A stretch of DNA of 64,000 nt from Escherichia coli (GTDB lineage: Bacteria > Pseudomonadota > Gammaproteobacteria > Enterobacterales > Enterobacteriaceae), in NCBI RefSeq assembly GCF_046105845.1, contig NZ_CP151004.1; one strand, written 5' to 3'. Every line of letters begins with the position of its first letter. Positions within the stretch are counted from its first letter, which is position 1. Under the pieces are notes generated by a model. The model was given only the letters and a program-made list of their open reading frames with translations. It was not told where the DNA came from and made no database searches. Shown here piece by piece: positions 27,831-64,000 of this stretch. A program made the position numbers and the translations under genes.

Positions 27831-27864
27831 GGACGGAACCTATTTTGACTCGACAAGACGTCCA

Positions 27865-31979: not shown

Positions 31980-32026
31980 TTGCGATTTGCCGATTTCGGC
32001 AGGTCTGGTCCCTAAAGGAGAGGACG

Positions 32027-34261: not shown

Positions 34262-34338
34262 GCCGAAATTAGCTCGTATCTACAATGTAGATTGATATAT
34301 ACTGTATCTACATATGATAGCGGTTTGAGGAAAGGGTT
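34262..34338 (+). promoter_or_regulatory. mazEF promoter/operator with palindromes
   Basis: tctacaatgtagattgatatatactgtatctacatatgatag: ATCTACA...TGTAGAT inverted motifs immediately upstream of mazE; known MazE/MazF autoregulatory site. Confidence 0.6.
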
Positions 34339-34587
34339 ATGATCCACAGTAGCGTAAAGCGTTGGGGAAATTCACCGGCGGTGCGGATCCCGGCTACGTT
34401 AATGCAGGCGCTCAATCTGAATATTGATGATGAAGTGAAGATTGACCTGGTGGATGGCAAATTAATTATTGAGCCAGTACGTAAAGAGCCCGTATTTACG
34501 CTTGCTGAACTGGTCAACGACATCACGCCGGAAAACCTCCACGAGAATATCGACTGGGGGGAGCCGAAAGATAAGGAAGTCTGGTAA
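34339..34587 (+). CDS. mazE: antitoxin MazE (AbrB/SpoVT fold)
   Basis: 82 aa [27 protein letters not shown]; stop overlaps mazF ATG. Confidence 0.9.
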
Positions 34588-34922
34588 TGGTAAGCCGATA
34601 CGTACCCGATATGGGCGATCTGATTTGGGTTGATTTTGACCCGACAAAAGGTAGCGAGCAAGCCGGACATCGTCCGGCTGTTGTCCTGAGTCCGTTCATG
34701 TACAACAACAAAACAGGTATGTGTCTGTGTGTTCCTTGTACAACGCAATCAAAAGGATATCCGTTCGAAGTTGTTTTATCCGGTCAGGAACGTGATGGCG
34801 TAGCGTTAGCTGATCAGGTAAAAAGTATCGCCTGGCGGGCAAGAGGAGCAACGAAGAAAGGAACGGTTGCCCCAGAGGAATTACAGCTCATTAAAGCCAA
34901 AATTAACGTGCTGATTGGGTAG
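34587..34922 (+). CDS. mazF: mRNA interferase toxin MazF (ACA-specific endoribonuclease)
   Basis: 111 aa [35 protein letters not shown], PemK/MazF fold. Confidence 0.9.
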   Translation: MVSRYVPDMGDLIWVDFDPTKGSEQAGHRPAVVLSPFMYNNKTGMCLCVPCTTQSKGYPFEVVLSGQERDGVALADQVKSIAWRARGATKKGTVAPEELQLIKAKINVLIG

Positions 34923-34993
34923 GTGTTACTAACTCACTTCTATTCTGGTCACAGGTTTCCACCTGACAGACCCGCAATTTTCAGGACATTCTA

Positions 34994-35785
34994 ATGAATC
35001 AAATCGACCGTTTGCTCACTATTATGCAGCGCCTGCGCGATCCGGAAAATGGCTGCCCGTGGGATAAAGAGCAGACATTTGCCACCATTGCGCCTTACAC
35101 CCTTGAAGAAACCTACGAGGTGCTGGACGCCATCGCCCGTGAAGATTTTGACGATCTTCGCGGTGAACTGGGCGATCTGCTGTTCCAGGTGGTGTTTTAC
35201 GCACAAATGGCCCAGGAAGAAGGGCGCTTTGACTTTAATGATATTTGCGCCGCGATCAGCGATAAATTAGAACGTCGCCATCCGCATGTTTTTGCTGACA
35301 GTTCTGCCGAAAACAGTAGTGAAGTGCTTGCCCGTTGGGAGCAAATCAAAACCGAAGAGCGCGCGCAGAAAGCGCAGCATTCGGCGCTGGACGATATTCC
35401 TCGTAGTTTACCGGCTTTAATGCGTGCGCAAAAAATCCAGAAACGTTGCGCCAACGTTGGTTTTGACTGGACGACGCTTGGTCCGGTAGTCGATAAAGTC
35501 TACGAAGAGATCGACGAGGTGATGTACGAGGCACGGCAGGCTGTTATCGACCAGGCTAAACTGGAGGAGGAAATGGGCGACCTGCTGTTTGCCACGGTCA
35601 ATCTGGCTCGTCATTTAGGGACAAAAGCGGAAATCGCATTGCAAAAAGCGAACGAAAAATTCGAGCGTCGTTTTCGCGAAGTGGAGCGTATTGTTGCCGC
35701 GCGTGGACTGGAAATGACAGGTGTTGACCTCGAAACAATGGAAGAAGTCTGGCAACAGGTAAAACGGCAGGAAATTGATCTCTAA
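34994..35785 (+). CDS. mazG: nucleoside triphosphate pyrophosphohydrolase MazG
   Basis: 263 aa, tandem MazG domains (EETYEVLDAI...; EEIDEVMYEA...). Confidence 0.9.
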   Translation: MNQIDRLLTIMQRLRDPENGCPWDKEQTFATIAPYTLEETYEVLDAIAREDFDDLRGELGDLLFQVVFYAQMAQEEGRFDFNDICAAISDKLERRHPHVFADSSAENSSEVLARWEQIKTEERAQKAQHSALDDIPRSLPALMRAQKIQKRCANVGFDWTTLGPVVDKVYEEIDEVMYEARQAVIDQAKLEEEMGDLLFATVNLARHLGTKAEIALQKANEKFERRFREVERIVAARGLEMTGVDLETMEEVWQQVKRQEIDL

Positions 35786-35997
35786 GGGAATTACGTGGTC
35801 AAGCGCGATTTGTGTCATTTTTTAAATGACAAGCGCTTGATTTGCGTCAAAAACATTTACCCCAAAGGGGCTATTTTCTCACTCCTGATTTCAATAGTGC
35901 GCTGGCGAAGAGGAGGGATAATGAAAGTTTGTGGCACAGGTCATGTTCGGGTATACTGCTTTCCCGTCTTGGTTATTCCATCGTCTTTTCAACCTAA

Positions 35998-37650
<1,653 letters not shown>

Positions 37651-37722
37651 GTAAAAAAGTTAGAACGGCAACGCGTACCCTGGGTACGCGTTGTTTGTCT
37701 GGAGTTTCAGTTTAACTAGTGA

Positions 37723-39036
<1,314 letters not shown>

Positions 39037-41029: not shown

Positions 41030-41272
41030 TTCTGGACTAATCATTGTCATTCTCTACAAATTCTGTAGCGTTAATTTTTCTCTGGGGTGAAAATTATTAC
41101 GTCGGAGTTTGGTAGATTTTAGTTTGTATAGAGTTATTTTAAATATTTACCTTTTCAATCAATGGATTAAGTGCTCTTTAACATAATAGATGTGTTGTTT
41201 GTGTGATACTGTAAAGTTGGTAGATTGTGACTGGCTTAAAAAATCATTAATTAATAATAGGTTATGTTTAGA
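41030..41272 (+). promoter_or_regulatory. CRISPR leader (AT-rich; promoter and integration-host signals)
   Basis: AT-rich sequence ending ...tggtagattgtgactggcttaaaaaatcattaattaataataggttatgtttaga immediately before repeat 1; the degenerate repeat is at the opposite end of the array. Confidence 0.75.
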
Positions 41273-42643
41273 GAGTTCCCCGCGCCAGCGGGGATAAACC
41301 GTTGTCCTGCTGAACCAAGTAAGCCACTGACAAGAGTTCCCCGCGCCAGCGGGGATAAACCGCATTATATCCTGTGCGTCGTTCATTTATTTACGAGTTC
41401 CCCGCGCCAGCGGGGATAAACCGGCCGCCGCATGGCAAAACAAACATCGGGGTACGAGTTCCCCGCGCCAGCGGGGATAAACCGGAACGGCGGCTATACG
41501 GATTCGACAGGTCAGCGAGTTCCCCGCGCCAGCGGGGATAAACCGGATTGAATGCAGATGGTTCAATGCTCGCATTCGAGTTCCCCGCGCCAGCGGGGAT
41601 AAACCGCCACGCGTGCTTTGAGTGGATGGTGTCGCTTGGAGTTCCCCGCGCCAGCGGGGATAAACCGATACATTATTAAGCGGGCAATTTTTCCAGTTTG
41701 AGTTCCCCGCGCCAGCGGGGATAAACCGAACGGCACGGCCTGCCGCCACGTCCCGCAGCTGAGTTCCCCGCGCCAGCGGGGATAAACCGGGGCCGTGTTT
41801 TCTAACGGATTCGCACATTGCGAGTTCCCCGCGCCAGCGGGGATAAACCGCAGCAGTTCAATACTGAAATCAACATGCCGATGAGTTCCCCGCGCCAGCG
41901 GGGATAAACCGCGCGGTGGGGTTTCATTCGCATCAATTCAAGGGAGTTCCCCGCGCCAGCGGGGATAAACCGGCGGTGAGTGAGAAAATCAGGACGGCTG
42001 CGAGGAGTTCCCCGCGCCAGCGGGGATAAACCGCGCCAAATATGCTGGTGGACTTCTACGCCGATGAGTTCCCCGCGCCAGCGGGGATAAACCGCTATCG
42101 ACGGTCAAGAAAATCCACCGGAAGAAGAGTTCCCCGCGCCAGCGGGGATAAACCGGCAGCAATATATTTGACATAATAGATAACCCGGAGTTCCCCGCGC
42201 CAGCGGGGATAAACCGACGCCAGGGGAGATATAACGCGCCTGTTATGGGAGTTCCCCGCGCCAGCGGGGATAAACCGGTCTTAACTAAAAGATGACCATT
42301 CAGTCGCAGGAGTTCCCCGCGCCAGCGGGGATAAACCGCGGCCCATAATATTAATATAATCCACATGAGGGAGTTCCCCGCGCCAGCGGGGATAAACCGC
42401 GCCGGAAATCATCGTTCTGTAATTGTCTAGCGAGTTCCCCGCGCCAGCGGGGATAAACCGCCCTGTTTGTTATTCCCATTATACGTATAAGAGAGTTCCC
42501 CGCGCCAGCGGGGATAAACCGCTTCTGGCTGGAGGTGGAGAAACGGAGGCAATGAGTTCCCCGCGTTAGCGGGGATAAACCGGATTTAGAGAGCCAGACG
42601 TTGGTCAGTTATTCGAGTTCCCCGCGTCAGCGGGGATAACCAT
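41273..42643 (+). CRISPR. Type I-E CRISPR array, 23 repeats / 22 spacers
   Basis: 29-bp repeat GAGTTCCCCGCGCCAGCGGGGATAAACCG recurs at exactly 61-bp period from 41273 to 42615; 32-bp unique spacers; repeat 22 has C>T (GCGTTAGCGGGG); terminal repeat degenerate (GCGTCAGCGGGGATAACCA). Confidence 0.97.
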
Positions 42644-49529: not shown

Positions 49530-50286
49530 AGCCGAACCGGATGCCGGAATGCTGGCGGAAAAAGAGTGGCAGGCGGCGGCTCAGGGTAATAGCGGACCGG
49601 ATGTTTCGCTTCTGCGAAGTTTACTCGGTGCTGATGAACAGGCTGCCGCCGCGCTGCTGTTGGCGCAGAGAAAAAACGGTACGTCGATGTCTTTAACCGC
49701 GTTGAGCATGGGGGATGAACGGGCGTTGCACTGGCTGCGCTATCTCATGGCCCTTGGGTTTGAGGAAGCTGTATTGCTGGAGACAGCGGCAGATCTGCGC
49801 TTTGCGCCGGAATTTGTCGCTCGCCATATTGCCGAATGGCAGCGTCAGAATCCGCTGGATCTGATAATTACCGGCTGCCAAAGCAGCGAAGGGCAGAATG
49901 GGCAAACGCCATTTTTGCTGGCGGAAATGCTGGGCTGGCCCTGCTTCACCCAGGTGGAGCGTTTCACTCTCGACGCGCCGTTTATCACCCTCGAACAGCG
50001 TACTGAACATGGGCTGCGCTGTTGCCGGGTTCGCTTGCCTGCGGTGATTGCCGTGCGCCAGTGCGGTGAAGTGGCCTTGCCAGTACCGGGAATGCGCCAG
50101 CGAATGGCGGCGGGGAAAGCAGAAATTATCCGTAAAACTGTTGCTGCCGAATTGCCAGCGATGCAGTGTCTGCAACTGGCAAGAGCAGAGCAACGACGCG
50201 GAGCGAGGCTGATTGATGGGCAAACGGTAGCAGAAAAAGCGCAAAAGCTATGGCAGGACTATTTACGCCAAAGGATGCGGCCATGA
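49507..50286 (+). CDS. ygcR: electron transfer flavoprotein beta-subunit-like YgcR (FixA-like)
   Basis: Start MNILLAFKAEPD; ETF-beta fold; overlaps ygcS 3' end and ygcQ start. Confidence 0.8.
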   Translation: MNILLAFKAEPDAGMLAEKEWQAAAQGNSGPDVSLLRSLLGADEQAAAALLLAQRKNGTSMSLTALSMGDERALHWLRYLMALGFEEAVLLETAADLRFAPEFVARHIAEWQRQNPLDLIITGCQSSEGQNGQTPFLLAEMLGWPCFTQVERFTLDAPFITLEQRTEHGLRCCRVRLPAVIAVRQCGEVALPVPGMRQRMAAGKAEIIRKTVAAELPAMQCLQLARAEQRRGARLIDGQTVAEKAQKLWQDYLRQRMRP

Positions 50287-51143
50287 ATATCGCAATTGTG
50301 ACAATAAATCAGGAGAATGCCGCAATAGCGAGCTGGCTGGCGGCGCAGGATTTCAGCGGTTGTACCCTGGCGCACTGGCAGATTGAACCTCAGCCCGTAG
50401 TGGCGGAACAGGTGCTGGATGCGCTGGTGGAACAGTGGCAGCGAACGCCTGCGGACGTTGTTCTCTTTCCGCCGGGAACGTTTGGCGATGAACTGTCGAC
50501 CCGGCTGGCCTGGCGTTTACATGGTGCAAGCATCTGCCAGGTGACTTCGTTAGATATTCCAACCGTAAGCGTGCGCAAATCCCACTGGGGAAATGCGCTA
50601 ACGGCGACGCTGCAAACAGAAAAACGCCCGCTATGCCTTTCCCTGGCGCGTCAGGCGGGAGCAGAGAAAAACGCCACGTTGCCCTCTGGTATGCAGCAAC
50701 TGAATATTGTCCCGGGTGCGCTTCCCGACTGGCTGGTTAGCACAGAGGATCTGAAAAATGTTACCCGCGACTCATTAGCTGAAGCCAGACGGGTGCTGGT
50801 GGTGGGGCAGGGCGGAGAGGCAGATAACCAGGAAATCGCTATGCTGGCAGAAAAGCTGGGAGCCGAAGTGGGCTACAGTCGGGCGCGAGTGATGAACGGT
50901 GGCGTTGATGCTGAAAAAGTGATTGGTATTTCCGGACATTTGCTGGCACCTGAGGTGTGTATTGTTGTTGGCGCTTCCGGCGCAGCAGCGTTAATGGCGG
51001 GCGTACGCAATAGCAAGTTTGTGGTGGCGATTAATCATGACGCCAGCGCGGCGGTATTTTCACAGGCAGATGTTGGCGTGGTTGATGACTGGAAAGCGGT
51101 GCTGGAGGCACTGGTGACAACCATTCACGCAGATTGCCAATAA
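50283..51143 (+). CDS. ygcQ: electron transfer flavoprotein alpha-subunit-like YgcQ (FixB-like)
   Basis: ORF 50250 trimmed to MNIAIVTINQ; C-terminal ETF-alpha FAD-binding region; ATGA overlap with ygcR stop. Confidence 0.8.
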   Translation: MNIAIVTINQENAAIASWLAAQDFSGCTLAHWQIEPQPVVAEQVLDALVEQWQRTPADVVLFPPGTFGDELSTRLAWRLHGASICQVTSLDIPTVSVRKSHWGNALTATLQTEKRPLCLSLARQAGAEKNATLPSGMQQLNIVPGALPDWLVSTEDLKNVTRDSLAEARRVLVVGQGGEADNQEIAMLAEKLGAEVGYSRARVMNGGVDAEKVIGISGHLLAPEVCIVVGASGAAALMAGVRNSKFVVAINHDASAAVFSQADVGVVDDWKAVLEALVTTIHADCQ

Positions 51144-51147
51144 CGTG

Positions 51148-51253
51148 CTGCCGGATGATCCTGCCTACGGTTCTGGGCTGGGGACTTGTAAGCCTGATAA
51201 GACGCGTCAAGCGTCGTATCAGGCGCTGAATGTCGGATGTGGCGTGCAGCCTA
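51148..51253. repeat. BIME (tandem REP units) between convergent ygcQ and ygcP
   Basis: tgccggatgatcctgcctac...gcctgataagacgcgtcaagcgtcgtatcaggc...gtcggatgtggcgtgcagcctac: several REP-type palindromes. Confidence 0.6.
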
Positions 51254-51289
51254 CAAAGCACATAAATTCAACTCGTTACGAGTATCCCG

Positions 51290-51865
51290 TCAAAGCAATT
51301 TTTTCGCTAACGTCCAGACCCCGGTATTCGTGGTGGAAAGCGCCACAACACCCGCGTTAATCGCATTACGCGCATCTTCTTCATCGCACACCAGCCCGCC
51401 GGCAATCAGCGGTTGGCGGATTTTCTCCGTCACCCAGCCCAGCACTTTAGGCATACAGCCTGGCAGGATCTCAATACAATCCGGATTCGATTGCGCAACT
51501 TGCTTATCAATGTTGTGAAACGAAATTGAATCAACAATAAACAGGCGATGAATACAGAAAAAACCTTCCGCTCTTGCCGCTTTCAACATTGAGGCTTTGG
51601 TACTGATAATGCCGTCCGCCTCAGTCACCAGTTTCAAAAACTGAATCACCACTTCTTTATTTGACGCGCCTTCCAGCAAATCAACATGAATAAAAGCATA
51701 TTTTCCGGCATTTTTAATCTTTTTAACGATTTGACTAATGGTGCAGATATTGCCGTACAACACGGAAATAAACTGGCATTCAGAGTCGATTGCCAGTTGC
51801 AGGCTGGCATTATCTTTAACGGCAGCAATCACCGGATTCTGGCGGAGCAGGTGTAAGAGGGGCAT
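51290..51865 (-). CDS. ygcP: GlpP-like glycerol-3-phosphate-responsive antiterminator family protein YgcP
   Basis: 191 aa MPLLHLLRQNPVIAAVKDNASLQ; GlpP/G3P-antiterminator fold. Confidence 0.8.
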   Translation of the reverse strand: MPLLHLLRQNPVIAAVKDNASLQLAIDSECQFISVLYGNICTISQIVKKIKNAGKYAFIHVDLLEGASNKEVVIQFLKLVTEADGIISTKASMLKAARAEGFFCIHRLFIVDSISFHNIDKQVAQSNPDCIEILPGCMPKVLGWVTEKIRQPLIAGGLVCDEEDARNAINAGVVALSTTNTGVWTLAKKLL

Positions 51866-51881
51866 AAATTATCCTTATTAT

Positions 51882-52142
51882 TTATCCAAAACGGTAGGTG
51901 ATGCCGAATCCGGAAGGCGGATAGCGCCACTGTTGTAGTGTTGATTCGTCGCACAGCAAACGGCAGGTGCCACACTCCAGGCAGCCGCGATAATCAACGC
52001 GTAAGTCACCTTCCGGTGTGAGCGAAAAAAGACCAGCCGGACAAGCGTTAATCAACCGTTGTACCGTCTGGCGCTCAACGGAGTCAGCCGGAACAATGTG
52101 CGGCGCATCGGCAACGCGCCAGAGATTACGGGCTACAGACAT
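51882..52142 (-). CDS. ygcO: ferredoxin-like protein YgcO (FixX-like)
   Basis: ORF trimmed to MSVARNLW (86 aa); Cys motif CLECGTCRLLC; overlaps ygcN 3' end. Confidence 0.75.
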   Translation of the reverse strand: MSVARNLWRVADAPHIVPADSVERQTVQRLINACPAGLFSLTPEGDLRVDYRGCLECGTCRLLCDESTLQQWRYPPSGFGITYRFG

Positions 52143-53404
52143 CGCAGACTCCTGATAACATCGCCCGCCAGATGCCACAGGCCGTGACGACGTAAATGAC
52201 GCCAGAGCAACTGGCGCAGCGGCGGAACAGGTTTATCACCCTGATCCCATAAATCACGGGAAATATCCTGCATTAACGCAGGCCACGCCCGATACCAGCC
52301 AGGGCGTTGCAAAAGCGCCGGAACATGCTGATAACGTTGTAGAACATCCCATAGCAGGCTGCGCTCGACGTTGTGATGATAAAGCGCAAACAGATTTTGC
52401 GGCTCGCGGTGCTGGCAGGCGCTTATCAGCGTTTGTGCCGCCGCCTGCGCGCCAGTTAGCGCCATATCCATGCCGCGCACGGAAATTCCGGTATTGACGC
52501 AACTGCGCAACGCATCGCCCACCAGCAGCCAGCCGTTACCGGCGTATTGCACCGGCATACTGTGCAAGCCACCTTCTGGCACCAGATGCGCACCATACTC
52601 CAGTGATTCCGTGTTTTTGATAAGCGGGCGCACTGCCGGATGCGTTTTAAAGCGAGCCAGCAGCTCGCTTGCCGGAACACGACTTTGCGTAAGGGAAGAG
52701 AGCGGGCAAACAATCCCTAACGAGAGCGTTTGTTGATTAGTATAAAGAAATGCGCCGCCGGGTAAGTCATCACAGATTCCGCCGCTGAACAGCAACGCTG
52801 CGCCTTCGTTATTCTCCAGATGAAAACGTTCTTCAATAGCGGATGTTTCCAGCGACAGCACTTCTTTGATCCCCAACGCCATCGCTTCGCCAGCAGGACG
52901 AGTCACTAACCCGTGACGCTCAGCCAGGACGCTGTTGGCACCTTCTGCCAGCACCACATAACGGGCGCGGAGAATATCGTCACCACAAATGACACCACAC
53001 ACCATGCCGTTTTCTTCATACAGCGCATCCACCGTCGCACCGGGGATGCATTCGACACCTTCTTTTTCGGCTTCGGCAACCAGCCACGGATCGAACCGTG
53101 CACGTAATACACTCCAGGATTCACCGCCGGGCTGTAAGCTGGAAAACGTCGTTGCGCCATCCGGCGTTAACAGGGAAAGGCTTTCGTGAGTGATGCGTCG
53201 TTCAAGAGGCGCGGTCAGATGAAATTGTGGGAGGAGTTCCGCGAGCGCCTGGGTATATAAACGCCCGCCGGAAAGATTTTTGCTGCCGGGGATTTCAGCG
53301 CGTTCCAGTAACAAAACGGATAAACCTGCCCGCGCGCAGCGTAAAGCACAAGCGGTGCCTGCTATACCCGCACCAATAATAATAATGTCGCAGTCGTCTT
53401 CCAT
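52133..53404 (-). CDS. ygcN: FAD-dependent oxidoreductase YgcN (FixC / ETF-quinone oxidoreductase-like)
   Basis: ORF trimmed to MEDDCDIIIIGAGIAGTACA (GxGxxG FAD fold), 423 aa. Confidence 0.8.
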   Translation of the reverse strand: MEDDCDIIIIGAGIAGTACALRCARAGLSVLLLERAEIPGSKNLSGGRLYTQALAELLPQFHLTAPLERRITHESLSLLTPDGATTFSSLQPGGESWSVLRARFDPWLVAEAEKEGVECIPGATVDALYEENGMVCGVICGDDILRARYVVLAEGANSVLAERHGLVTRPAGEAMALGIKEVLSLETSAIEERFHLENNEGAALLFSGGICDDLPGGAFLYTNQQTLSLGIVCPLSSLTQSRVPASELLARFKTHPAVRPLIKNTESLEYGAHLVPEGGLHSMPVQYAGNGWLLVGDALRSCVNTGISVRGMDMALTGAQAAAQTLISACQHREPQNLFALYHHNVERSLLWDVLQRYQHVPALLQRPGWYRAWPALMQDISRDLWDQGDKPVPPLRQLLWRHLRRHGLWHLAGDVIRSLRCL

Positions 53405-53481
53405 GTCGTGCCCCATATATCCAGAGCGCAACACCCTAACATAGCGTTACTTAAGGGAAATTGACCGCCGACACACTCTTA

Positions 53482-53847
53482 TCATTCGCCGCGATAGATG
53501 CAACCTGCGGTGCAGGTTTCTTTCACCATAACCGCACTTAACAGCGGAACAACCGGTTTAACCTGATCCCAAATCCATTTTGCTAAAACCTCGCTGGTCG
53601 GGTTTTCCAGACCTGGAATATCATTGAGATAATGGTGATCGAGGCGCTCATAAGTTGGCTTAAACGCCGCTTTCAGTTCAGCGAAATCGATAATCCAGCC
53701 CGTATGCGGATCGACTTCCCCGGTAATTTCCAGTCGCACCATAAAGGAATGCCCGTGCAGGCGACCACATTTATGCCCTTCCGGGACGTGTGGTAAGCGG
53801 TGAGCGGCTTCGAAGGTGAAATCTTTAAATAACGTGGTGGACATCAT
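53482..53847 (-). CDS. queD: 6-carboxy-5,6,7,8-tetrahydropterin synthase QueD
   Basis: ORF trimmed to [35 protein letters not shown] (121 aa); Zn-binding His/Cys of the PTPS fold. Confidence 0.85.
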
Positions 53848-53931
53848 AATTTCTCTACAGGACGATAAAACCGCCGTAGAGTACCGGAAAGGCTGTTTTT
53901 TCGCATTATCTAAAACGACTTTGTTGCGCAA

Positions 53932-54162
53932 AATCGCTGATTTATCTTAATGATTGGCTAAATTCATTTGTTTTTCATTGGGTTGGTTAATCTGTTTTGT
54001 TGTTAAAGACTATTGCTAAAACAGGTTAGTCGATTTGGTTATTAGTTATCGCTATCCCGTCTTTAATCCACACCGTTCACCCCGTTAACCTTACCTTCTC
54101 TTCTGTTTTATGGGCGCTGACAGGGCGCAGAAACAGCTTTGCTTACTGGAACATAACGACGC
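53932..54162 (+). promoter_or_regulatory. cysJIH promoter region (CysB-dependent in E. coli)
   Basis: AT-rich 230 bp upstream of cysJ; specific CysB sites not resolved by eye. Confidence 0.45.
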
Positions 54163-55962
54163 ATGACGACACAGGTCCCACCTTCCGCGTTGCTTCCGTT
54201 GAACCCGGAGCAACTGGCACGCCTTCAGGCGGCCACGACCGATTTAACTCCTACCCAGCTTGCCTGGGTTTCTGGCTATTTCTGGGGCGTGCTCAACCAG
54301 CAGCCTGCTGCGCTTGCAGCGACGCCAGCGCCCGCCGCAGAAATGCCGGATATAACTATTATCTCCGCTTCGCAAACCGGCAATGCGCGCCGGGTTGCTG
54401 AAGCATTACGCGATGATTTATTAGCGGCAAAACTGAACGTTAAGCTGGTGAACGCGGGCGACTATAAATTCAAACAAATCGCCAGCGAAAAACTGCTCAT
54501 CGTGGTGACGTCAACGCAAGGGGAAGGGGAACCGCCGGAAGAAGCCGTCGCGCTGCATAAGTTCCTGTTCTCCAAAAAAGCGCCAAAGCTGGAAAACACT
54601 GCATTTGCCGTGTTTAGCCTCGGCGATAGCTCTTATGAATTTTTCTGCCAGTCCGGGAAAGATTTTGACAGCAAGCTGGCGGAACTGGGCGGTGAACGCC
54701 TGCTCGACCGTGTCGATGCCGACGTTGAATACCAGGCTGCTGCCATCGAGTGGCGCGCCCGCGTGGTTGATGCGCTTAAATCGCGTGCGCCTGTCGCGGC
54801 ACCTTCGCAATCCGTCGCTACTGGCGCGGTAAATGAAATCCACACCAGCCCGTACAGCAAAGACGCGCCGCTGGTGGCGAGCCTCTCTGTTAACCAGAAA
54901 ATTACCGGGCGTAACTCTGAAAAAGACGTTCGCCATATCGAAATTGACTTAGGTGACTCTGGCCTGCGTTACCAGCCGGGTGACGCGCTGGGCGTCTGGT
55001 ATCAGAACGATCCGGCACTGGTGAAAGAACTTGTCGAACTGCTGTGGCTGAAAGGCGATGAAACTGTCACCGTTGACGGCAAAACGCTGACCCTGAGCGA
55101 AGCGCTACAGTGGCACTTTGAACTCACCGTCAACACCGCGAATATTGTTGAGAACTACGCCACGCTTACCCGCAGCGAAACGCTGCTGCCGCTGGTGGGC
55201 GATAAAGCCAAGTTACAGCATTACGCCGTGACCACGCCGATTGTTGACATGGTGCGTTTCTCTCCGGCGCAACTGGATGCCGAAGCGCTGATTAACCTGC
55301 TGCGCCCGCTGACCCCGCGCCTGTATTCCATCGCCTCCTCGCAGGCGGAAGTCGAGAACGAAGTACACGTTACCGTTGGTGTGGTGCGTTACGACGTGGA
55401 AGGCCGCGCCCGTGCCGGTGGTGCCTCCAGTTTCCTCGCGGACCGTGTGGAAGAAGAGGGCGAAGTCCGCGTCTTTATCGAACATAACGATAACTTCCGC
55501 CTGCCAGCCAATCCGGAAACGTCGGTGATTATGATTGGCCCAGGCACCGGCATCGCGCCGTTCCGCGCCTTTATGCAGCAACGCGCCGCCGACGAAGCGT
55601 CGGGGAAAAACTGGCTGTTCTTTGGCAACCCGCACTTTACGGAAGATTTCCTCTACCAGGTGGAATGGCAGCGCTACGTCAAAGAGGGCGTGCTGACGCG
55701 TATCGATCTTGCCTGGTCGCGCGATCAAAAAGAAAAAATTTACGTACAAGACAAACTGCGCGAACAGGGCGCGGAGCTGTGGCGCTGGATCAATGACGGT
55801 GCCCACATTTATGTCTGCGGCGACGCTAATCGCATGGCGAAAGACGTTGAGCAGGCACTTCTGGAAGTGATTGCCGAATTTGGTGGCATGGACACCGAAG
55901 CGGCGGATGAATTTTTAAGTGAGCTGCGCGTAGAGCGCCGTTATCAGCGAGATGTCTACTAA
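54163..55962 (+). CDS. cysJ: sulfite reductase [NADPH] flavoprotein alpha-component CysJ
   Basis: 599 aa; flavodoxin-like FMN domain plus FAD/NADPH ferredoxin-reductase domain. Confidence 0.95.
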
Positions 55963-57674
55963 TGAGCGAAAAACATCCAGGGCCTTTAGTGGTCGAAGGA
56001 AAACTGACAGACGCCGAGCGCATGAAGCTTGAAAGCAACTACCTGCGCGGCACCATTGCGGAAGATTTAAACGACGGTCTGACCGGTGGTTTTAAGGGCG
56101 ACAACTTCCTGCTGATCCGCTTCCACGGCATGTATCAGCAGGATGACCGCGACATCCGCGCCGAACGTGCTGAACAGAAGCTGGAGCCACGTCATGCAAT
56201 GCTGTTGCGCTGTCGTCTGCCGGGTGGGGTGATTACCACCAAACAGTGGCAGGCGATCGATAAATTTGCCGGTGAAAACACCATCTATGGCAGCATTCGC
56301 CTGACCAACCGCCAGACGTTTCAGTTTCACGGCATTCTGAAAAAGAACGTCAAACCGGTGCACCAGATGCTGCACTCGGTCGGTCTTGATGCGCTGGCGA
56401 CCGCCAACGATATGAACCGTAACGTGCTGTGCACTTCGAACCCTTACGAGTCGCAGTTGCACGCGGAAGCATATGAATGGGCGAAGAAAATCTCTGAACA
56501 TCTGCTGCCACGTACCCGCGCGTATGCGGAGATCTGGCTCGATCAGGAAAAAGTCGCCACTACTGATGAAGAGCCGATCCTTGGTCAGACCTACCTGCCG
56601 CGTAAGTTCAAAACCACGGTAGTGATCCCGCCGCAGAACGATATCGATCTGCACGCCAACGACATGAACTTCGTGGCGATCGCCGAAAACGGCAAGCTGG
56701 TGGGCTTTAACCTGCTGGTGGGCGGTGGGCTTTCCATCGAGCACGGCAACAAGAAGACCTACGCCCGCACGGCGAGTGAGTTTGGTTATCTGCCGCTGGA
56801 GCATACGCTAGCGGTGGCGGAAGCCGTCGTGACAACTCAGCGTGACTGGGGTAACCGAACCGATCGTAAAAATGCCAAAACCAAATACACGCTGGAGCGC
56901 GTGGGGGTTGAGACGTTTAAAGCGGAAGTGGAGCGTCGCGCGGGGATCAAATTTGAACCGATCCGTCCGTATGAGTTTACCGGACGCGGCGATCGTATTG
57001 GCTGGGTTAAGGGCATTGATGATAACTGGCACCTGACGCTGTTTATCGAAAATGGTCGCATCCTTGATTATCCTGGGCGTCCGCTGAAAACCGGCCTGCT
57101 GGAGATCGCGAAGATCCACAAAGGCGATTTCCGCATTACGGCGAACCAGAATCTAATCATCGCCGGTGTGCCGGAAAGCGAGAAAGCGAAGATCGAGAAG
57201 ATCGCCAAAGAGAGCGGGTTAATGAATGCCGTCACGCCGCAGCGTGAAAACTCAATGGCCTGCGTGTCATTCCCGACTTGCCCGCTGGCGATGGCGGAAG
57301 CAGAGCGTTTCCTGCCGTCTTTTATCGACAACATCGATAATTTAATGGCGAAACATGGTGTCAGCGATGAGCATATCGTGATGCGTGTAACAGGCTGCCC
57401 GAACGGTTGTGGTCGCGCGATGCTGGCGGAAGTGGGCCTGGTGGGTAAAGCGCCGGGTCGCTACAACCTGCATCTTGGCGGCAACCGCATTGGGACACGT
57501 ATCCCACGGATGTATAAAGAAAACATCACCGAGCCGGAAATCCTGGCGTCGCTTGATGAACTGATAGGGCGCTGGGCGAAAGAGCGCGAAGCGGGTGAAG
57601 GCTTCGGCGACTTTACGGTGCGTGCGGGCATCATTCGCCCGGTGCTCGATCCGGCGCGGGATTTGTGGGATTAA
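55962..57674 (+). CDS. cysI: sulfite reductase [NADPH] hemoprotein beta-component CysI
   Basis: 570 aa; siroheme/4Fe-4S cysteines ([19 protein letters not shown]); ATG overlaps cysJ stop. Confidence 0.95.
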
Positions 57675-57690
57675 CCATCAGCCCGGTCTT

Positions 57691-57730
57691 GTAGGCCTGA
57701 TAAGACGTGTGAGCGTCGCATCAGGCAAGG
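57691..57730. repeat. REP element between cysI and cysH
   Basis: gtaggcctgataagacgtgtgagcgtcgcatcaggcaagg. Confidence 0.55.
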
Positions 57731-57747
57731 CAAACAGTGAGGAATCT

Positions 57748-58482
57748 ATGTCCAAACTCGATCTAAACGCCCTGAACGAACTGCCGAAGGTAGATCGCAT
57801 TCTGGCGCTGGCGGAAACTAACGCCGAACTGGAAAAACTGGACGCTGAAAGCCGCGTTGCCTGGGCGCTGGATAATCTGCCCGGTGAATATGTACTTTCT
57901 TCCAGCTTTGGCATTCAGGCGGCGGTGAGCCTGCATCTGGTGAATCAGATTCACCCGGATATCCCGGTGATCCTGACCGATACGGGTTATCTGTTTCCGG
58001 AAACCTACCGCTTTATTGACGAGTTAACGGACAAACTCAAGCTCAACCTGAAAGTGTACCGTGCTACCGAAAGCGCCGCCTGGCAGGAAGCGCGCTACGG
58101 CAAACTGTGGGAGCAGGGTGTTGAAGGCATTGAAAAGTACAATGACATCAACAAAGTCGAACCAATGAACCGGGCGCTGAAAGAACTGAATGCGCAAACC
58201 TGGTTTGCTGGCCTGCGCCGTGAACAATCCGGCAGCCGCGCCAATTTACCGGTGCTGGCAATTCAGCGTGGCGTATTTAAAGTGCTGCCGATTATCGACT
58301 GGGATAACCGAACTATTTATCAGTACCTGCAAAAGCATGGCCTGAAATATCACCCATTATGGGACGAAGGATATTTATCGGTGGGCGATACCCATACAAC
58401 CCGTAAATGGGAACCCGGCATGGCGGAAGAAGAAACGCGTTTCTTTGGCTTAAAAAGGGAATGTGGGTTACACGAAGGGTAA
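57748..58482 (+). CDS. cysH: phosphoadenosine phosphosulfate (PAPS) reductase CysH
   Basis: ORF 57595 trimmed to [23 protein letters not shown] (244 aa); C-terminal ECGLH catalytic Cys motif. Confidence 0.9.
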
Positions 58483-58840
58483 ATATTGCCGGATAAATTA
58501 AACGCCTCTGTCAGAAATGATGGGGGCGTTTTTATTTTGCGAGCAGCATTCCTGATTTTAAACGTGAACGCCGCTGGAAGAATCAACAGGTATATAATGG
58601 TGTCGGGTGCTTGAGGCTGTCTGGCGTTAAGCATTCGCGAGGTTCCAGATGGACAAAAGCCCCAGGCGATATTTCTATCAACCTGAGGCCAGCGTTCGAA
58701 CCCAAACAATTCGAATGTTAGTCTCTTCTTTGCAGGGAGGCAAGACATGTGTATATCACTGTAATTCGATATTTATGAGCAGCATCGAAAAATAGTCCAC
58801 TGATATCATCGATAATACTAAAAAAACAGGGAGGCTATTA

Positions 58841-61507
58841 ATGGAACCTTTTAAATATATATGTCATTACTGGGGGAAATCCTCAAAAAGCCTGACGAAA
58901 GGAAATGATATTCATCTGTTGATTTATCATTGCCTGGATGTTGCAGCTGTTGCAGATTGCTGGTGGGATCAATCAGTCGTACTACAAAATGCTTTTTGCC
59001 GAAATGAAATGCTATCAAAACAGAAGGTGAAAGCCTGGCTGTTATTTTTCATTGCCCTTCATGATATCGGAAAGTTTGATATACGATTCCAATATAAATC
59101 AGCAGAAAGTTGGCTGAAATTAAATCCTGCAACGCCATCACTTAATGGTCCATCAACACAAATGTGCCGTAAATTTAATCATGGTGCAGCCGGTCTGTAT
59201 TGGTTTAACCAGGATTCACTTTCAGAGCAATCTCCCGGGGATTTTTTCAGTTTTTTTGATGCCGCTCCTCATCCTTATGAGTCCTGGTTTCCATGGGTAG
59301 AGGCCGTTACAGGACATCATGGTTTTATATTACATTCCCAGGATCAAGATAAGTCGCGTTGGGAAATGCCAGCTTCTCTGGCATCTTATGCTGCGCAAGA
59401 TAAACAGGCTCGTGAGGAGTGGATATCTGTACTCGAAGCATTATTTTTAACGCCAGCTGGGTTATCTATAAACGATATACCACCTGATTGTTCATCACTG
59501 TTAGCAGGTTTTTGCTCGCTTGCTGACTGGTTAGGTTCCTGGACCACAACGGATACCTTTCTATTCAAAGAAGATGCACCTTCAGGCATACAAGCGCTAA
59601 GAACATATTTTCAGTATAGACAACAGGATGCGTGTCGGGTACTGGAGTTGAGTGGCCTTGTATCAAATAAGCGTAGTTATGACGGCGTACATGCCTTACT
59701 GGACAATGGCTATCAACCAAGACAATTACAGGTGTTGGTTGATGCTCTTCCTACAGCTCCCGGGCTGACGGTGATTGAGGCACCTACGGGATCAGGTAAA
59801 ACCGAAACAGCGCTGGCCTATGCCTGGAAACTTATTGACCAACAACTTGCGGAGAGTGTTATTTTTGCCCTCCCTACACAAGCTACTGCAAATGCAATGC
59901 TCAGTAGAATGGAAGCGAACGCGAGCCGTTTATTTACCTCCCCAAATCTTATTCTTGCTCATGGTAATTCACGTTTTAACCACCTTTTTCAATCAATAAA
60001 ATCACGCGCATTTACTGAGCAGGGGCAAGAAGAAGCATGGGTTCAGTGTTGCCAATGGTTGTCACAAAGTAATAAGAAAGTGTTTCTAGGGCAAATAGGC
60101 GTTTGCACGATTGATCAGGTATTGATATCGGTATTGCCAGTTAAACATCGCTTTATCCGTGGTTTGGGAATTGGTCGAAGTATTTTAATTGTTGATGAAG
60201 TTCATGCTTACGACACGTATATGAACGGCTTGCTGGAGGCTGTGCTCAAGGCTCAGGCTGATGTGGGAGGGAGTGTTATTCTTCTTTCCGCAACTCTACC
60301 AATGAAACAAAAACAGAAACTTCTGGATACTTATGGTCTGCATACAGATCCAGAGGAAAATAACTCCGCATATCCACTCATTAACTGGCGAGGTGTGAAT
60401 GGTGCACAACGTTTTGATCTGTTAGCTCATCCAGAACAACTCCCGCCCCGCTTTTCGATTCGGCCAGAACCTATTTATTTAGCTGACATGTTACCTGACC
60501 TTAGGATGTTAGAGCGAATGATCGCAGCGGCAAATGCGGGTGCACAAGTCTGTCTTATCTGCAATTTGGTTGATGTTGCACAACTATGCCACCAACGGTT
60601 AAAGGAACTAAATAACACGCAAGTAGATATAGATTTGTTTCATGCGCGCTTTACGCTGAACGATCGTCGTGAAAAAGAGAATCGAGTTATTAGCAATTTC
60701 GGCAAAAATGGGAAGCGAAATGTTGGACGGATACTTGTCGCCACCCAGGTCGTGGAACAATCACTCGACGTTGATTTTGATTGGTTAATTACTCAGCATT
60801 GCCCCGCAGATTTACTTTTCCAACGATTGGGCCGTTTACATCGCCATCATCGCAAATATCGTCCCGCTGGTTTTGAGGTTCCTCTTGCCACCGTTTTGCT
60901 GCCTGATGGCGAAGGTTACGGACGACATGAGCATATTTATAGCAACGTTAGAGTCATGTGGCGGACGCAGCAACATATTGAGGAACTTAATGGAGCATCC
61001 TTATTTTTCCCCGATGCCTACCGGCAATGGCTGGATAGCATTTACGATGATGCTGAAATGGATGAGCCAGAATGGGTCATCAAAGGCATGGATAAGTTTG
61101 AAAGCGCTGAGTGTGAAAAGAGGTTCAAGGCTCGCAAGGTTCTGCAGTGGGCTGAAGAATATAGCTTGCAGGATAACGATGAAACAATTCTTGCGGTAAC
61201 GAGGGATGGGGAAATGAGCCTGCCATTATTGCCTTATTTACAAACGTCTTCAGGTAAACAACTGCTCGATGGCCAGGTCTACGAGGACCTAAGTCATGAA
61301 CAGCAGTATGAGGCGTTAGCACTTAATCGCGTCAATGTACCCTTCACCTGGAAACGTAATTTTTCTGAAGTAGTAGATGAAGATGGGTTACTTTGGCTGG
61401 AAGGGAAACAGAATCAGAATGGATGGATCTGGCAGGGTAATAATATTGTTATTACCTACACTCGGGATGAAGGGATGACCAGAGTCATCCCTGCAAATCC
61501 CAAATAA
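58841..61507 (+). CDS. cas3: CRISPR-associated nuclease/helicase Cas3 (type I-E)
   Basis: 888 aa; HD nuclease motif (FIALHDIGKFD), SF2 helicase Walker A (EAPTGSGKTETAL) and DEAH-type box (LIVDEVHAYD). Confidence 0.95.
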   Translation: MEPFKYICHYWGKSSKSLTKGNDIHLLIYHCLDVAAVADCWWDQSVVLQNAFCRNEMLSKQKVKAWLLFFIALHDIGKFDIRFQYKSAESWLKLNPATPSLNGPSTQMCRKFNHGAAGLYWFNQDSLSEQSPGDFFSFFDAAPHPYESWFPWVEAVTGHHGFILHSQDQDKSRWEMPASLASYAAQDKQAREEWISVLEALFLTPAGLSINDIPPDCSSLLAGFCSLADWLGSWTTTDTFLFKEDAPSGIQALRTYFQYRQQDACRVLELSGLVSNKRSYDGVHALLDNGYQPRQLQVLVDALPTAPGLTVIEAPTGSGKTETALAYAWKLIDQQLAESVIFALPTQATANAMLSRMEANASRLFTSPNLILAHGNSRFNHLFQSIKSRAFTEQGQEEAWVQCCQWLSQSNKKVFLGQIGVCTIDQVLISVLPVKHRFIRGLGIGRSILIVDEVHAYDTYMNGLLEAVLKAQADVGGSVILLSATLPMKQKQKLLDTYGLHTDPEENNSAYPLINWRGVNGAQRFDLLAHPEQLPPRFSIRPEPIYLADMLPDLRMLERMIAAANAGAQVCLICNLVDVAQLCHQRLKELNNTQVDIDLFHARFTLNDRREKENRVISNFGKNGKRNVGRILVATQVVEQSLDVDFDWLITQHCPADLLFQRLGRLHRHHRKYRPAGFEVPLATVLLPDGEGYGRHEHIYSNVRVMWRTQQHIEELNGASLFFPDAYRQWLDSIYDDAEMDEPEWVIKGMDKFESAECEKRFKARKVLQWAEEYSLQDNDETILAVTRDGEMSLPLLPYLQTSSGKQLLDGQVYEDLSHEQQYEALALNRVNVPFTWKRNFSEVVDEDGLLWLEGKQNQNGWIWQGNNIVITYTRDEGMTRVIPANPK

Positions 61508-61921
61508 CTTCGGGAATGATTGGTATCAATGACGATAACAAGACCAATAACGGTTTATCCCTACTTAAGTAGGGAAGGTGCACAATGTACATCTTCTTTT
61601 AATTTCCCGGTATGAGATTTTATATTCACAGTATGAATATTTTATGTAATAAAATTCATGGTGATTATTATAACTAAAAATTTCTTTGATAATAAAACGA
61701 ATAACTTGCAGATTTGAAATGCATGCATTATTGTCTTTAAACAATTCAACACATCTTAATATATGCATAGGTTAATTGTATTAAACCAATGGATATATTT
61801 TTGCAGTGAATGTGATTATTGAATTAATTACGCCGTATTTTTTCTTTGTTTTTACCGATAACGGAAGTGTGCCGACGTATAGAAATGCAGGAGAAATGTC
61901 GGAGCATATGAAGGAGAACAA
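61508..61921 (+). promoter_or_regulatory. cas3-cse1 intergenic region containing the Cascade operon promoter (Pcas)
   Basis: 414 bp, strongly AT-rich, non-coding, directly upstream of cse1; in E. coli K-12 this region is H-NS-silenced and LeuO-activated (established knowledge; exact promoter elements not mapped here). Confidence 0.6.
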
Positions 61922-63430
61922 ATGAATTTGCTTATTGATAACTGGATCCCTGTACGCCCGCGAAACGGGGGGAAAGTCCAAATCATAAATCTGCAATCGC
62001 TATACTGCAGTAGAGATCAGTGGCGATTAAGTTTGCCCCGTGACGATATGGAACTGGCCGCTTTAGCACTGCTGGTTTGCATTGGGCAAATTATCGCCCC
62101 GGCAAAAGATGACGTTGAATTTCGACATCGCATAATGAATCCGCTCACTGAAGATGAGTTTCAACAACTCATCGCGCCGTGGATAGATATGTTCTACCTT
62201 AATCACGCAGAACATCCCTTTATGCAGACCAAAGGTGTCAAAGCAAATGATGTGACTCCAATGGAAAAACTGTTGGCTGGGGTAAGCGGCGCGACGAATT
62301 GTGCATTTGTCAATCAACCGGGGCAGGGTGAAGCATTATGTGGTGGATGCACTGCGATTGCGTTATTCAACCAGGCGAATCAGGCACCTGGTTTTGGTGG
62401 TGGCTTTAAAAGCGGTTTACGTGGAGGAACACCTATAACCACCTTCGTATGTGGGATCGATCTTCGCTCGACGGTGTTACTCAATGTCCTCACAATACCT
62501 CGTCTTCAAAAACAATTTCCCAATGAATCAAATACGGAAAACCAACCTACCTGGATTAAGCCTGTCAAGCCCAATGAATCTGTGCCAGCTTCGTCAATTG
62601 GGTTTGTCCGTGGCTTATTCTGGCAACCAGCGCATATTGAATTATGCGATCCCATTGGGATTGGTAAATGTTCTTGCTGTGGACAGGAAAGCAATTTGCG
62701 TTATACAGGTTTTCTTAAGGAAAAATTTACCTTTACAGTTAATGGGCTATGGCCCCATCCGCATTCCCCTTGTCTGGTAACAGTCAAGAAAGGGGAGGTT
62801 GAGGAAAAATTTCTTGCTTTCACCACCTCCGCACCATCATGGACACAAATCAGCCGAGTTGTGGTAGATAAGATTATTCAAAATGAAAATGGAAATCGCG
62901 TGGCGGCGGTTGTGAATCAATTCAGAAATATTGCGCCGCAAAGTCCTCTTGAATTGATTATGGGGGGATATCGTAATAATCAAGCATCTATTCTTGAACG
63001 GCGTCATGATGTGTTGATGTTTAATCAGGGGTGGCAACAATACGGCAATGTGATAAACGAAATAGTGACTGTTGGTTTGGGATATAAAACAGCCTTACGC
63101 AAGGCGTTATATACCTTTGCAGAAGGGTTTAAAAATAAAGACTTCAAAGGGGCCGGAGTCTCTGTTCATGAGACTGCAGAAAGGCATTTCTATCGACAGA
63201 GTGAATTATTAATTCCCGATGTACTGGCGAATATTAATTTTTCCCAAGCTGATGAGGTAATAGCTGATCTACGAGACAAACTTCATCAATTGTGTGAAAT
63301 GCTATTTAATCAATCTGTAGCTCCCTATGCACATCATCCTAAATTAATAAGCACATTAGCGCTTGCCCGCGCCACGCTATACAAACATTTACGGGAGTTA
63401 AAACCGCAAGGAGGGTCATCAAATGGCTGA
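61922..63430 (+). CDS. casA: Cascade large subunit Cse1 (CasA, Cas8e)
   Basis: 502 aa MNLLIDNWIPVRPRNGGKVQIINLQSLYCSRDQWRLSLPRDD, recognised as E. coli Cse1. Confidence 0.95.
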   Translation: MNLLIDNWIPVRPRNGGKVQIINLQSLYCSRDQWRLSLPRDDMELAALALLVCIGQIIAPAKDDVEFRHRIMNPLTEDEFQQLIAPWIDMFYLNHAEHPFMQTKGVKANDVTPMEKLLAGVSGATNCAFVNQPGQGEALCGGCTAIALFNQANQAPGFGGGFKSGLRGGTPITTFVCGIDLRSTVLLNVLTIPRLQKQFPNESNTENQPTWIKPVKPNESVPASSIGFVRGLFWQPAHIELCDPIGIGKCSCCGQESNLRYTGFLKEKFTFTVNGLWPHPHSPCLVTVKKGEVEEKFLAFTTSAPSWTQISRVVVDKIIQNENGNRVAAVVNQFRNIAPQSPLELIMGGYRNNQASILERRHDVLMFNQGWQQYGNVINEIVTVGLGYKTALRKALYTFAEGFKNKDFKGAGVSVHETAERHFYRQSELLIPDVLANINFSQADEVIADLRDKLHQLCEMLFNQSVAPYAHHPKLISTLALARATLYKHLRELKPQGGSSNG

Positions 63431-63905
63431 TGAAATTGATGCAATAGCTTTATATCGAGCCTGGCAACAACTGGATAATGGAGCATGTGCGCAAATTAGA
63501 CGTGTTTCAGAACCTGATGAATTACGCGATATCCCTGCGTTTTATAGGCTGGTGCAACCTTTTGGTTGGGAAAACCCACGTCACCAGCAGGCTCTTTTGC
63601 GCATGGTGTTTTGCCTGAGCGCAGGAAAGAATGTCATCCGACATCAGGACAAAAAACCGGAGCAAATAACAGGTATCTCGTTGGGAAGAGCTTTAGCCAA
63701 TAGTGGAAGAATTAACGAGCGCCGTATCTTTCAATTAATTCGGGCTGACAGAACAGCCGATATGGTCCAGTTACGTCGATTACTTACTCACGCCGAACCC
63801 GTACTTGACTGGCCATTAATGGCCAGGATGTTGACCTGGTGGGGAAAGCGCGAACGCCAGCAACTTCTGGAAGATTTTGTATTGACCACAAACAAAAATG
63901 CGTAA
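63423..63905 (+). CDS. casB: Cascade small subunit Cse2 (CasB, Cas11)
   Basis: 160 aa MADEIDAIALYRAWQQLDNGACAQIRR; 8-bp overlap with casA. Confidence 0.9.
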   Translation: MADEIDAIALYRAWQQLDNGACAQIRRVSEPDELRDIPAFYRLVQPFGWENPRHQQALLRMVFCLSAGKNVIRHQDKKPEQITGISLGRALANSGRINERRIFQLIRADRTADMVQLRRLLTHAEPVLDWPLMARMLTWWGKRERQQLLEDFVLTTNKNA

Positions 63906-63917
63906 GGAAACCTTTCT

Positions 63918-64000
63918 ATGTCTAACTTTATCAATATTCATGTTCTGATCTCTCACAGCCCTTCATGTCTGAACCGCGACGATATGAACATGCAGAAAGA
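63918..64000 (+). CDS. casC: Cascade backbone subunit Cas7e (CasC, Cse4), N-terminal fragment cut by window end
   Basis: [27 protein letters not shown] opens at 63918 with RBS aggaaa upstream; continues beyond the window. Confidence 0.8.

Follow-up and report, generated by a model that had tools for sequence, protein, structure and literature searches.

Do the cas genes at the end of this stretch of DNA belong to a complete and familiar CRISPR-Cas system, and is that system likely to serve its host? The window, by which is meant the whole 64,000 nt analysed, is E. coli chromosomal DNA and is collinear with positions 2,945,620 to 2,882,060 of K-12 MG1655 over its entire length. With a probability of about 97%, the cas region is the 5′ half of a chromosomal K-12-variant type I-E CRISPR-Cas locus, found at the normal site, with cysJIH and a hok/sok remnant upstream of it (Table 1). 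No finding speaks against this identification. Since it comprises K-12-type cas3, casA and casB genes of full length and the 5′-end of casC at the usual site adjoining cysH, the locus is, to all appearance, an intact example of an ordinary K-12-type system that is already known, and the allele is not new. A profile search assigned the ORFs to Cas3, Cse1/CasA and Cse2/CasB, in line with the first-pass annotation, and also to Cas7/CasC. The NCBIfam scores of Cas3, CasA and CasB lie above their cut-offs and thus exclude chance open frames. With bit scores 2–3 times the curated cut-offs, and with a region that is both collinear with K-12 and identical to independent assemblies, the idea that the cas ORFs are fortuitous, or that the region is misassembled or chimeric, can be dismissed.

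Table 1. Features of the cas region and the associated array, in window coordinates.
Feature	Coordinates	Strand	Description
Second type I-E array (K-12 "CRISPR 2", between ygcE and queE)	41273..42582	+	22 repeats of 29 nt, 21 spacers of 32 nt
hok/sok remnant between cysH and cas3	58605..58765	+	hok-mRNA leader / sokX region
cas3	58841..61507	+	ATG start, 888 aa; N-terminal HD nuclease, SF2 helicase and C-terminal domain in one polypeptide
cas3-casA intergenic region	61508..61921	+	AT-rich, GC 0.33–0.37
casA / cse1	61922..63430	+	502 aa, Cascade large subunit
casB / cse2	63423..63905	+	160 aa, Cascade small subunit
casC / cas7e, 5′-end	63918..64000	+	ATG at 63918, 27 codons + 2 nt, then window end

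The cas3 gene had been described as encoding a full-length 888-aa protein with an HD motif and SF2 helicase motifs I to VI, a description with which the ORF, the profiles and the motif strings all agree. The protein scores 1601 bits against NCBIfam NF007248 (cut-off 569), exceeds the cut-offs of both TIGR01596 (HD) and TIGR01587 (helicase core), and contains the Pfam domains Cas3_HD (residues 11–235), DEAD (309–491) and Cas3-like_C_2 (567–671). Its alignment to K-12 Cas3, which the first-pass annotation had proposed as a check on the catalytic residues, is free of indels and shows 95.7% amino acid identity (94.9% nucleotide identity); none of the 38 substitutions falls within any HD-nuclease or SF2-helicase motif checked. 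At the K-12 residue numbers, exact strings were found for the HD motif (H74-D75) and for helicase motifs I, Ia, Ic, II, III, IV, V and VI. On the HD side, H30, H74, D75, K78, H159, H160 and D229 are the same as in K-12, as are the helicase residues K320 (Walker A), the DEVH box (452–455), S483/T485 and the motif VI string QRLGRLHRH (661–669). The W230/W406 "gate" residues and N411-K412-K413 of motif Ic, whose roles in Cas3 have been reported (PMC8001533), are also kept. The HD metal-binding residues are intact, as are helicase motifs III/VI and the Walker A and B motifs. The protein also aligns to the solved type I-E Cas3 structures of Thermobaculum terrenum (4Q2C) and Thermobifida fusca (4QQW / 6C66), which are distant orthologues (E = 9e-68 and 5e-48) and served solely for confirming motif placement. 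The fused HD, RecA1, RecA2 and CTD architecture is common to all, together with the motifs HDIGK, GHHG, ADW, GxGKTE, DEVHAYD, SATLP, ATQVxEQSLD and QRxGRLHRH.

CasA, which recognises the PAM and brings in Cas3, scores 904 bits against NCBIfam NF007247 (cut-off 576) and 534 bits against TIGR02547, again above the cut-off. It differs from its K-12 counterpart at nine amino acids (98.3% nucleotide identity for casA) and matches chain A of the E. coli Cascade structure PDB 4QYZ along its full length with 1158 bits. CasB, with 57 bits against TIGR02548 (NCBIfam; cut-off 28.5), has four amino acid differences (casB, 99.2% nucleotide identity) and matches chain B of the same structure over its full length. 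The overlap of casA and casB at 63423–63430 (ATGGCTGA) is 8 bp, equal to that of K-12; both genes had been called full length with such an overlap, as their ORFs, K-12-equal lengths and profiles confirm. Ribosome-binding sites of the GGAGG/AGGAG type are found upstream of cas3 and of casA, and one of AAGGA type upstream of casC. In the raw sequence the operon is indeed cut after 27 codons of casC, and positions 1–25 of the TIGR01869 profile align with CasC residues 3–27. The absence of frameshifts and premature stops asserted in the first-pass annotation is likewise borne out, with gene lengths equal to those of K-12, a single terminal stop in each frame, and zero indels or internal stops.

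The remainder of the operon can be read from a public contig, L004 (GCA_044249515.1), which is 100% identical to the window across the shared 12,079 nt. Downstream in this contig, casC, casD, casE, cas1 and cas2 are full length, equal in length to their K-12 counterparts and all above the profile cut-offs (CasC, for example, has 363 aa and 427 bits). The genes cas7e, cas5e, cas6e, cas1e and cas2e would thus be expected downstream in the same operon of the present strain, as read from a contig whose identity extends over the shared 12 kb only. Counting the window and L004 together, all eight cas genes of the lineage are full length. The description "apparently intact" is therefore true of what the window contains, and the rest of the operon is intact in the identical contig.

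An open frame could still encode an inactive protein if one or more substitutions outside the motifs were damaging, the candidates being Cas3 L132P in the HD domain, CasA R177C and the cluster at Cas3 residues 238–281. The 38, nine and four differences of Cas3, CasA and CasB, respectively, from the experimentally characterised K-12 proteins leave some room for such an explanation, but it is very improbable given that the motifs and residues known to be required are all untouched. Nine contigs from several independent public assemblies carry the same Cas3 sequence. Across five other loci (L005 to L009) recovered via the same CasA protein, the cas3-casB DNA shows 99.6–100% identity. Divergence of cas3 from K-12 has a hot spot at 59562–60061, where most of the differences are shared with strain AF39 and so define a class of alleles, not lesions peculiar to this lineage. 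Identical Cas3, CasA and CasB protein sequences have already been deposited in NCBI under E. coli annotation. An exact 52-nt casB pattern had no matches in GTDB species-representative genomes, as expected for a strain that is not among the representatives. Identity to complete genomes is uneven along the window: the best match for cysJIH is only 98.1% among 5426 complete genomes, and the relA-eno block reaches 99.3%. An origin in an Escherichia species other than E. coli, which the cysJIH value might suggest, was rejected in view of the relA-eno identity, the E. coli labels of the deposited proteins and the collinearity with K-12. The pattern fits ordinary mosaic recombination.

On its left side, the K-12-type cas cassette is bounded by the hok/sok remnant. 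Rfam RF01794 matches positions 58605–58761 with 103.7 bits (gathering score 59), the hok ORF is reduced to five codons (MCISL and a stop, 58748–58765), and the K-12 annotation has sokX at the same place. Just upstream of the hok-leader remnant, a G-to-T change in this lineage gives a consensus TATAAT hexamer (58593–58598; TAGAAT in K-12) that faces cas3. A consensus promoter scan of 58400–62100 returned five promoter-like sites vs. 9.2 in shuffled sequence, and a terminator scan of the same interval placed the cysH terminator at 58500–58531. A 132-aa minus-strand ORF at 58350–58748 is considered spurious, as it overlaps the 3′-end of cysH and the sok region and has no Pfam hit; it is called a gene in some metagenome annotations. 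Over its 414 nt, the cas3-casA intergenic region has seven substitutions relative to that of K-12, and indels are absent. In K-12, this region contains the Pcas promoter with binding sites for H-NS, LeuO and LrhA (PMC12968389), and the locus stays silent without removal of H-NS or an increase in LeuO/LrhA (PMC4782391; PMC12968389). In the present strain, H-NS presumably also represses transcription from the intergenic region, with LeuO/LrhA lifting the repression.

The position of the array in the window is backed by a repeat search, the spacer list and flanking collinearity with K-12. Its last repeat is degenerate, and an AT-rich leader is found at about 41100–41272. The repeat of the cognate array is 29 nt long (GAGTTCCCCGCGCCAGCGGGGATAAACCG), and the array downstream of cas2 in L004 comprises 23 repeats. 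The two arrays contain 21 spacers (window) and 22 spacers, every one of them 32 nt. Spacers 8, 16 and 17 of the window array have 32/32 matches to IncF traI, IncN and IncHI-type conjugative plasmids, with GAG, AAG and AAG as the respective PAMs, while spacer 10 of CRISPR1 matches gene 23 of P1/P7. Interference-proficient PAMs comprise AAG, AGG, ATG and GAG. All three plasmid protospacers examined have a PAM of the AAG type directly at their 5′ side. No self-targeting spacers were found in the window or L004 with up to six mismatches and an exact 8-nt match at one spacer end. A comparison of the window array with a phage collection yielded only four records (one Salmonella contig and three short unannotated "phage" entries), all of which matched via CRISPR repeats, and hence no real protospacer.

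The steps by which crRNA, Cascade and Cas3 bring about interference are established for the E. coli type I-E system. In the present strain, CasE would process crRNA out of the 29-nt-repeat arrays, and Cascade would form from CasA, CasB, CasC, CasD and CasE together with a 61-nt crRNA. CasA would then read an AAG-type PAM, an R-loop would form between crRNA and protospacer, and CasA would recruit Cas3, whose HD nuclease would nick the displaced strand while its SF2 helicase reels in the DNA for degradation. Judging from their sequences, the Cas proteins are probably active and may support Cas3-dependent, crRNA-guided interference.

Activity of the proteins is to be distinguished from use of the system. 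The dN/dS values relative to K-12 (0.115 for cas3 and 0.17 for casA) indicate purifying selection. They are also 6–10 times the values of cysI and cysH, and in the closest complete genomes IS1/IS3 insertions and frameshifts are frequent in cas3, casA and casB, the latter indicating a tendency of the locus to decay in this clade. The system could potentially be cryptic in the strain despite its intact genes, i.e., transcriptionally silenced, decaying and without a current role in immunity. This is a serious possibility, if somewhat short of an even one. The promoter region, nearly identical to the H-NS-silenced Pcas of K-12 (PMC4782391), is in keeping with it, as are the lesions in the nearest complete genomes and the excess of cas dN/dS over the neighbouring housekeeping genes. 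Set against it are the eight full-length cas genes of the lineage, the constraint that a dN/dS of 0.1–0.2 still reflects, and the long arrays (21 and 22 spacers) with perfect matches and interference-proficient PAMs; moreover, the spacer-matched plasmids and P1-like elements circulate today.

The opposite proposal, that this lineage, unlike K-12, uses its type I-E system naturally, draws on the intact cas genes, the long arrays and the PAM-flanked perfect spacers against IncF/IncN/IncHI-type plasmids and P1-like phage-plasmids. Interference in K-12 is limited by cas3 transcription, which the TATAAT change could increase. Natural use is nevertheless judged unlikely; if true, it would make the strain a naturally occurring case of E. 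coli in which CRISPR-Cas actively keeps out resistance plasmids. For the locus as identified here, an intact K-12-type system, significance beyond correct annotation is small, since no type I CRISPR-Cas system has been studied more intensively. The combination of a complete K-12-type system with spacers that are perfect matches to phage P1 and to IncF traI, IncN and IncHI-type plasmids is of modest practical value, as it provides a convenient natural background in which to ask whether the native CRISPR-Cas of E. coli ever restricts the entry of resistance plasmids.

The closest known locus is that of K-12 MG1655 (cas3 b2761, casA b2760, casB b2759 and casC b2758; "var. K-12", PMC12736100). The two share gene order, gene lengths, the 8-bp casA/casB overlap, the 29-nt repeat and both array positions, and both of their intergenic regions are 98% identical without indels, with a hok-less sokX remnant adjoining cysH in each. 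They differ in the allelic divergence of the cas genes and in their spacers, which are entirely different and are carried in longer arrays in the present lineage. The region is covered to at least 80% in 1117 of 5426 complete genomes. The second E. coli variant, the O157:H7-like type I-E system ("var. B-8552", PMC12736100), has the same chromosomal site (cysH to iap), gene order and subtype as the window, whereas its cas3, cas7, cas5 and cas6 have only about 30% amino acid identity to the K-12 type (PMC12736100). Assignment of the window to this variant was ruled out, since homology with ~80% of complete E. coli genomes ends at window position ~58749, where those genomes have an intact Hok/Gef gene instead. 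The O157:H7-like variant thus retains beside cysH the intact hok gene that the present locus, like that of K-12, has lost.

The interval 58841–64000 of the window is, judged on sequence, a real and apparently intact copy of a known, already annotated system, the type I-E cas locus of E. coli. The first-pass annotation had described an apparently intact cas3 and the 5′ part of the Cascade operon, and was right in both observation and interpretation. The six-frame ORF list agrees exactly with its coordinates and lengths for cas3, casA and casB, the 8-bp casA/casB overlap is seen at 63423–63430 (ATGGCTGA), and the casC frame is indeed cut by the window end. Ribosome-binding sites of the GGAGG/AGGAG type are found 5′ of cas3 and of casA, and AAGGA is found 5′ of casC. 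The GC content falls from ~0.55 in cysI/cysH to 0.38–0.46 over the cas genes and 0.33 in the cas3–casA spacer. An antisense ORF at the cysH 3′-end, which is a gene call in two metagenome/Logan assemblies and has no Pfam match, is probably spurious.

Features of the window and of the related contig L004 (window positions unless marked L004; identities and differences relative to K-12 MG1655)
Feature	Position	Strand	Description
GcvB small RNA	2720–2925	−	Rfam, full length, K-12 position
fucO–ygdG segment	13798–13847		50 nt without K-12 alignment
CsrB small RNA	21154–21513	+	Rfam, full length, K-12 position
gudD–barA block	27667–27847		181 nt without K-12 alignment; G+C-rich, palindromic (REP/BIME-like)
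Second type I-E array	41273–42582	+	K-12 "CRISPR 2" position (ygcE–queE); leader ~41100–41272
Antisense ORF	58350–58748	−	132 aa; antisense to cysH 3′-end and sok region
TATAAT hexamer	58593–58598	+	6 nt upstream of hok-leader match start, facing cas3
sok/hok-leader family	58605–58761	+	Rfam RF01794; sokX in K-12 annotation
hok frame	58748–58765		ATG TGT ATA TCA CTG TAA (MCISL*)
cas3	58841–61507	+	888 aa; NF007248, 1601 bits (cut-off 569); 38 aa differences, 95.7% aa, 94.9% nt
cas3 hot spot	59562–60061		codons ~241–407
casA	61922–63430	+	502 aa; NF007247, 904 bits (cut-off 576); 9 aa differences, 98.2% aa, 98.3% nt
casB	63423–63905	+	160 aa; TIGR02548, 57 bits (cut-off 28.5); 4 aa differences, 97.5% aa, 99.2% nt
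casC 5′-end	ATG at 63918	+	27 codons plus two bases to window end
L004 cas-proximal array	L004 15676–17046		outside window; 23 repeats, 22 spacers

All three complete proteins exceed the curated NCBIfam cut-offs for Cas3, Cse1 and Cse2, and their exact sequences are present in NCBI and UniRef as E. coli Cas3, CasA and CasB. The 27-residue casC fragment aligns to the first 25 positions of the NCBIfam Cas7e/CasC model. Cas3 contains the Pfam domains Cas3_HD (11–235), DEAD (309–491) and Cas3-like_C_2 (567–671) and aligns with 4Q2C and 4QQW, two solved structures of type I-E Cas3, while CasA and CasB match E. coli Cascade crystal/cryo-EM chains at full length (4QYZ, 4TVX, 4U7U, 5H9F and others).

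In a gene-by-gene comparison against the annotated MG1655 locus, all cas gene lengths are equal and there are no indels; as first proposed, frameshifts and premature stops are absent. Every Cas3 motif string occurs at its K-12 residue number, in both the HD nuclease (YHCLDV, H30; ALHDIGK, H74, D75, K78; TGHHG, H159, H160; SLADWLGS, D229, W230) and the SF2 helicase (APTGSGKT, K320; ALPTQATAN; CTIDQ; VDEVH, D452; LSATLP, S483, T485; LICNLV; VATQVVEQSLDVD; QRLGRLHRH). None of the 38 Cas3 substitutions falls in any motif and catalytic-site substitutions are absent; those outside the motifs include Cas3 L132P and, in CasA, R177C. Mutation of Cas3 H74, D75, K320, D452 or S483/T485 was reportedly found by Westra and colleagues in 2012 to abolish interference. 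Cas3 likewise keeps the W230/W406 "gate" pair and N411-K412-K413, whose roles have been described previously (PMC8001533). Measured against K-12, cas3 has a dN/dS of 0.115 and casA one of 0.17, versus 0.02–0.03 for cysI and cysH; the cas genes are therefore constrained, though less tightly than housekeeping genes. Divergence from K-12 within cas3 peaks in a hot spot (64 differences in 500 nt, versus 2–13 per 250 nt elsewhere in the gene). In this stretch the window hardly differs from strain AF39, so cas3 resembles a mosaic of allele classes brought together by recombination.

Over its full 64 kb, the window is collinear with K-12 positions 2,945,620 down to 2,882,060, in the order csdE, gcvA/GcvB, fuc, sdaCB, CsrB, gud, barA, relA, mazEF, pyrG, eno, queE, CRISPR 2, ygcE through ygcN, queD, cysJIH and cas3-casABC. 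The cysH–cas3 and cas3–casA spacers are almost unchanged (9 substitutions in 358 nt and 7 in 414 nt, respectively), and the latter is in K-12 the site of Pcas with its H-NS, LeuO and LrhA sites (PMC12968389). In K-12, cas3 itself is also under H-NS control during stationary phase and becomes limiting at 37°C (PMC4782391). From this near-identity we infer K-12-like regulation, in which the operon would be silenced by H-NS and relieved by LeuO/LrhA, with the same stationary-phase control and limitation of cas3.

The closest complete E. coli genomes share 98.5–98.8% identity over the cas region. Distance is uneven along the window: among 5426 complete genomes, identity reaches at most 98.1% over cysJIH/ygcN-R (50000–58482) and up to 99.3% over relA-mazG-pyrG-eno (30678–39036). 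None of these complete genomes belongs to the window's lineage, and the region is mosaic. An exact-protein look-up with CasA returned 22 contigs. One of these, L004 (GCA_044249515.1, DBAMWG010000003.1), shares 12,079 bases with the window at 100% identity, and five other loci recovered in this way (L005–L009) are 99.6–100% identical over cas3-casB. L004 continues with casC (363 aa), casD (224 aa), casE (199 aa), cas1 (305 aa) and cas2 (94 aa), each above its NCBIfam cut-off, of K-12 length and differing from K-12 by 1–5 aa, followed by the 23-repeat array and iap-cysDNC. Several of the closest complete genomes (H1, H3–H6; L003 9358–15672) carry IS1/IS3 insertions or frameshifts in cas3, casA, casB, cas5e or cas6e, so that the K-12-type locus, apparently intact here, is often decaying in related strains.

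The window's own array has 22 repeats, the terminal one degenerate, and 21 spacers of 32 nt, three of which have perfect 32/32 matches in conjugative plasmids. Spacer 8 (PAM GAG) matches traI of IncF plasmids, which account for the majority of the 2473 plasmid records that it hits in a spread sample. Spacers 16 and 17 (both PAM AAG) match ~34-kb and 170–285-kb plasmids; the one record examined for each is IncN and IncHI1A, respectively. In the L004 array, whose three leader-distal repeats begin GTG instead of GAG, spacer 6 matches a site in several thousand plasmids, mostly IncF-type, and spacer 10 perfectly matches gene 23 (major head protein) of phage-plasmids P1, P7, RCS47 and SJ46. Near-matches of the spacers elsewhere in the window or L004 were not found. 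Plasmid and P1 matches are a known pattern for E. coli spacers. They attest to past acquisition by an AAG-selecting Cas1–Cas2 complex, not to current activity.

At the left edge, the hok frame has shrunk to five codons and a stop. The TATAAT hexamer is common to the window's lineage, L004 and two other loci recovered through CasA (L006, L008), while K-12, AF39, Z1323 and the recovered locus L007 have TAGAAT; the change possibly gives a stronger read-through promoter. That this lineage naturally uses the system against conjugative plasmids, perhaps aided by this TAGAAT to TATAAT change upstream of cas3, seems improbable. In ~80% of a spread sample of 5426 complete genomes, homology to the window ends at ~58749, where an intact Hok/Gef gene is found; the K-12-type cas cassette therefore has its left junction at this point. 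In the same sample, 1088 genomes run on into the window's cas3, and 1117 complete genomes cover at least 80% of 58483–64000. E. coli is known to be split between a "K-12" variant and a second type I-E variant (PMC12736100); the division at ~58749 is this known split, and the window carries the K-12 variant.
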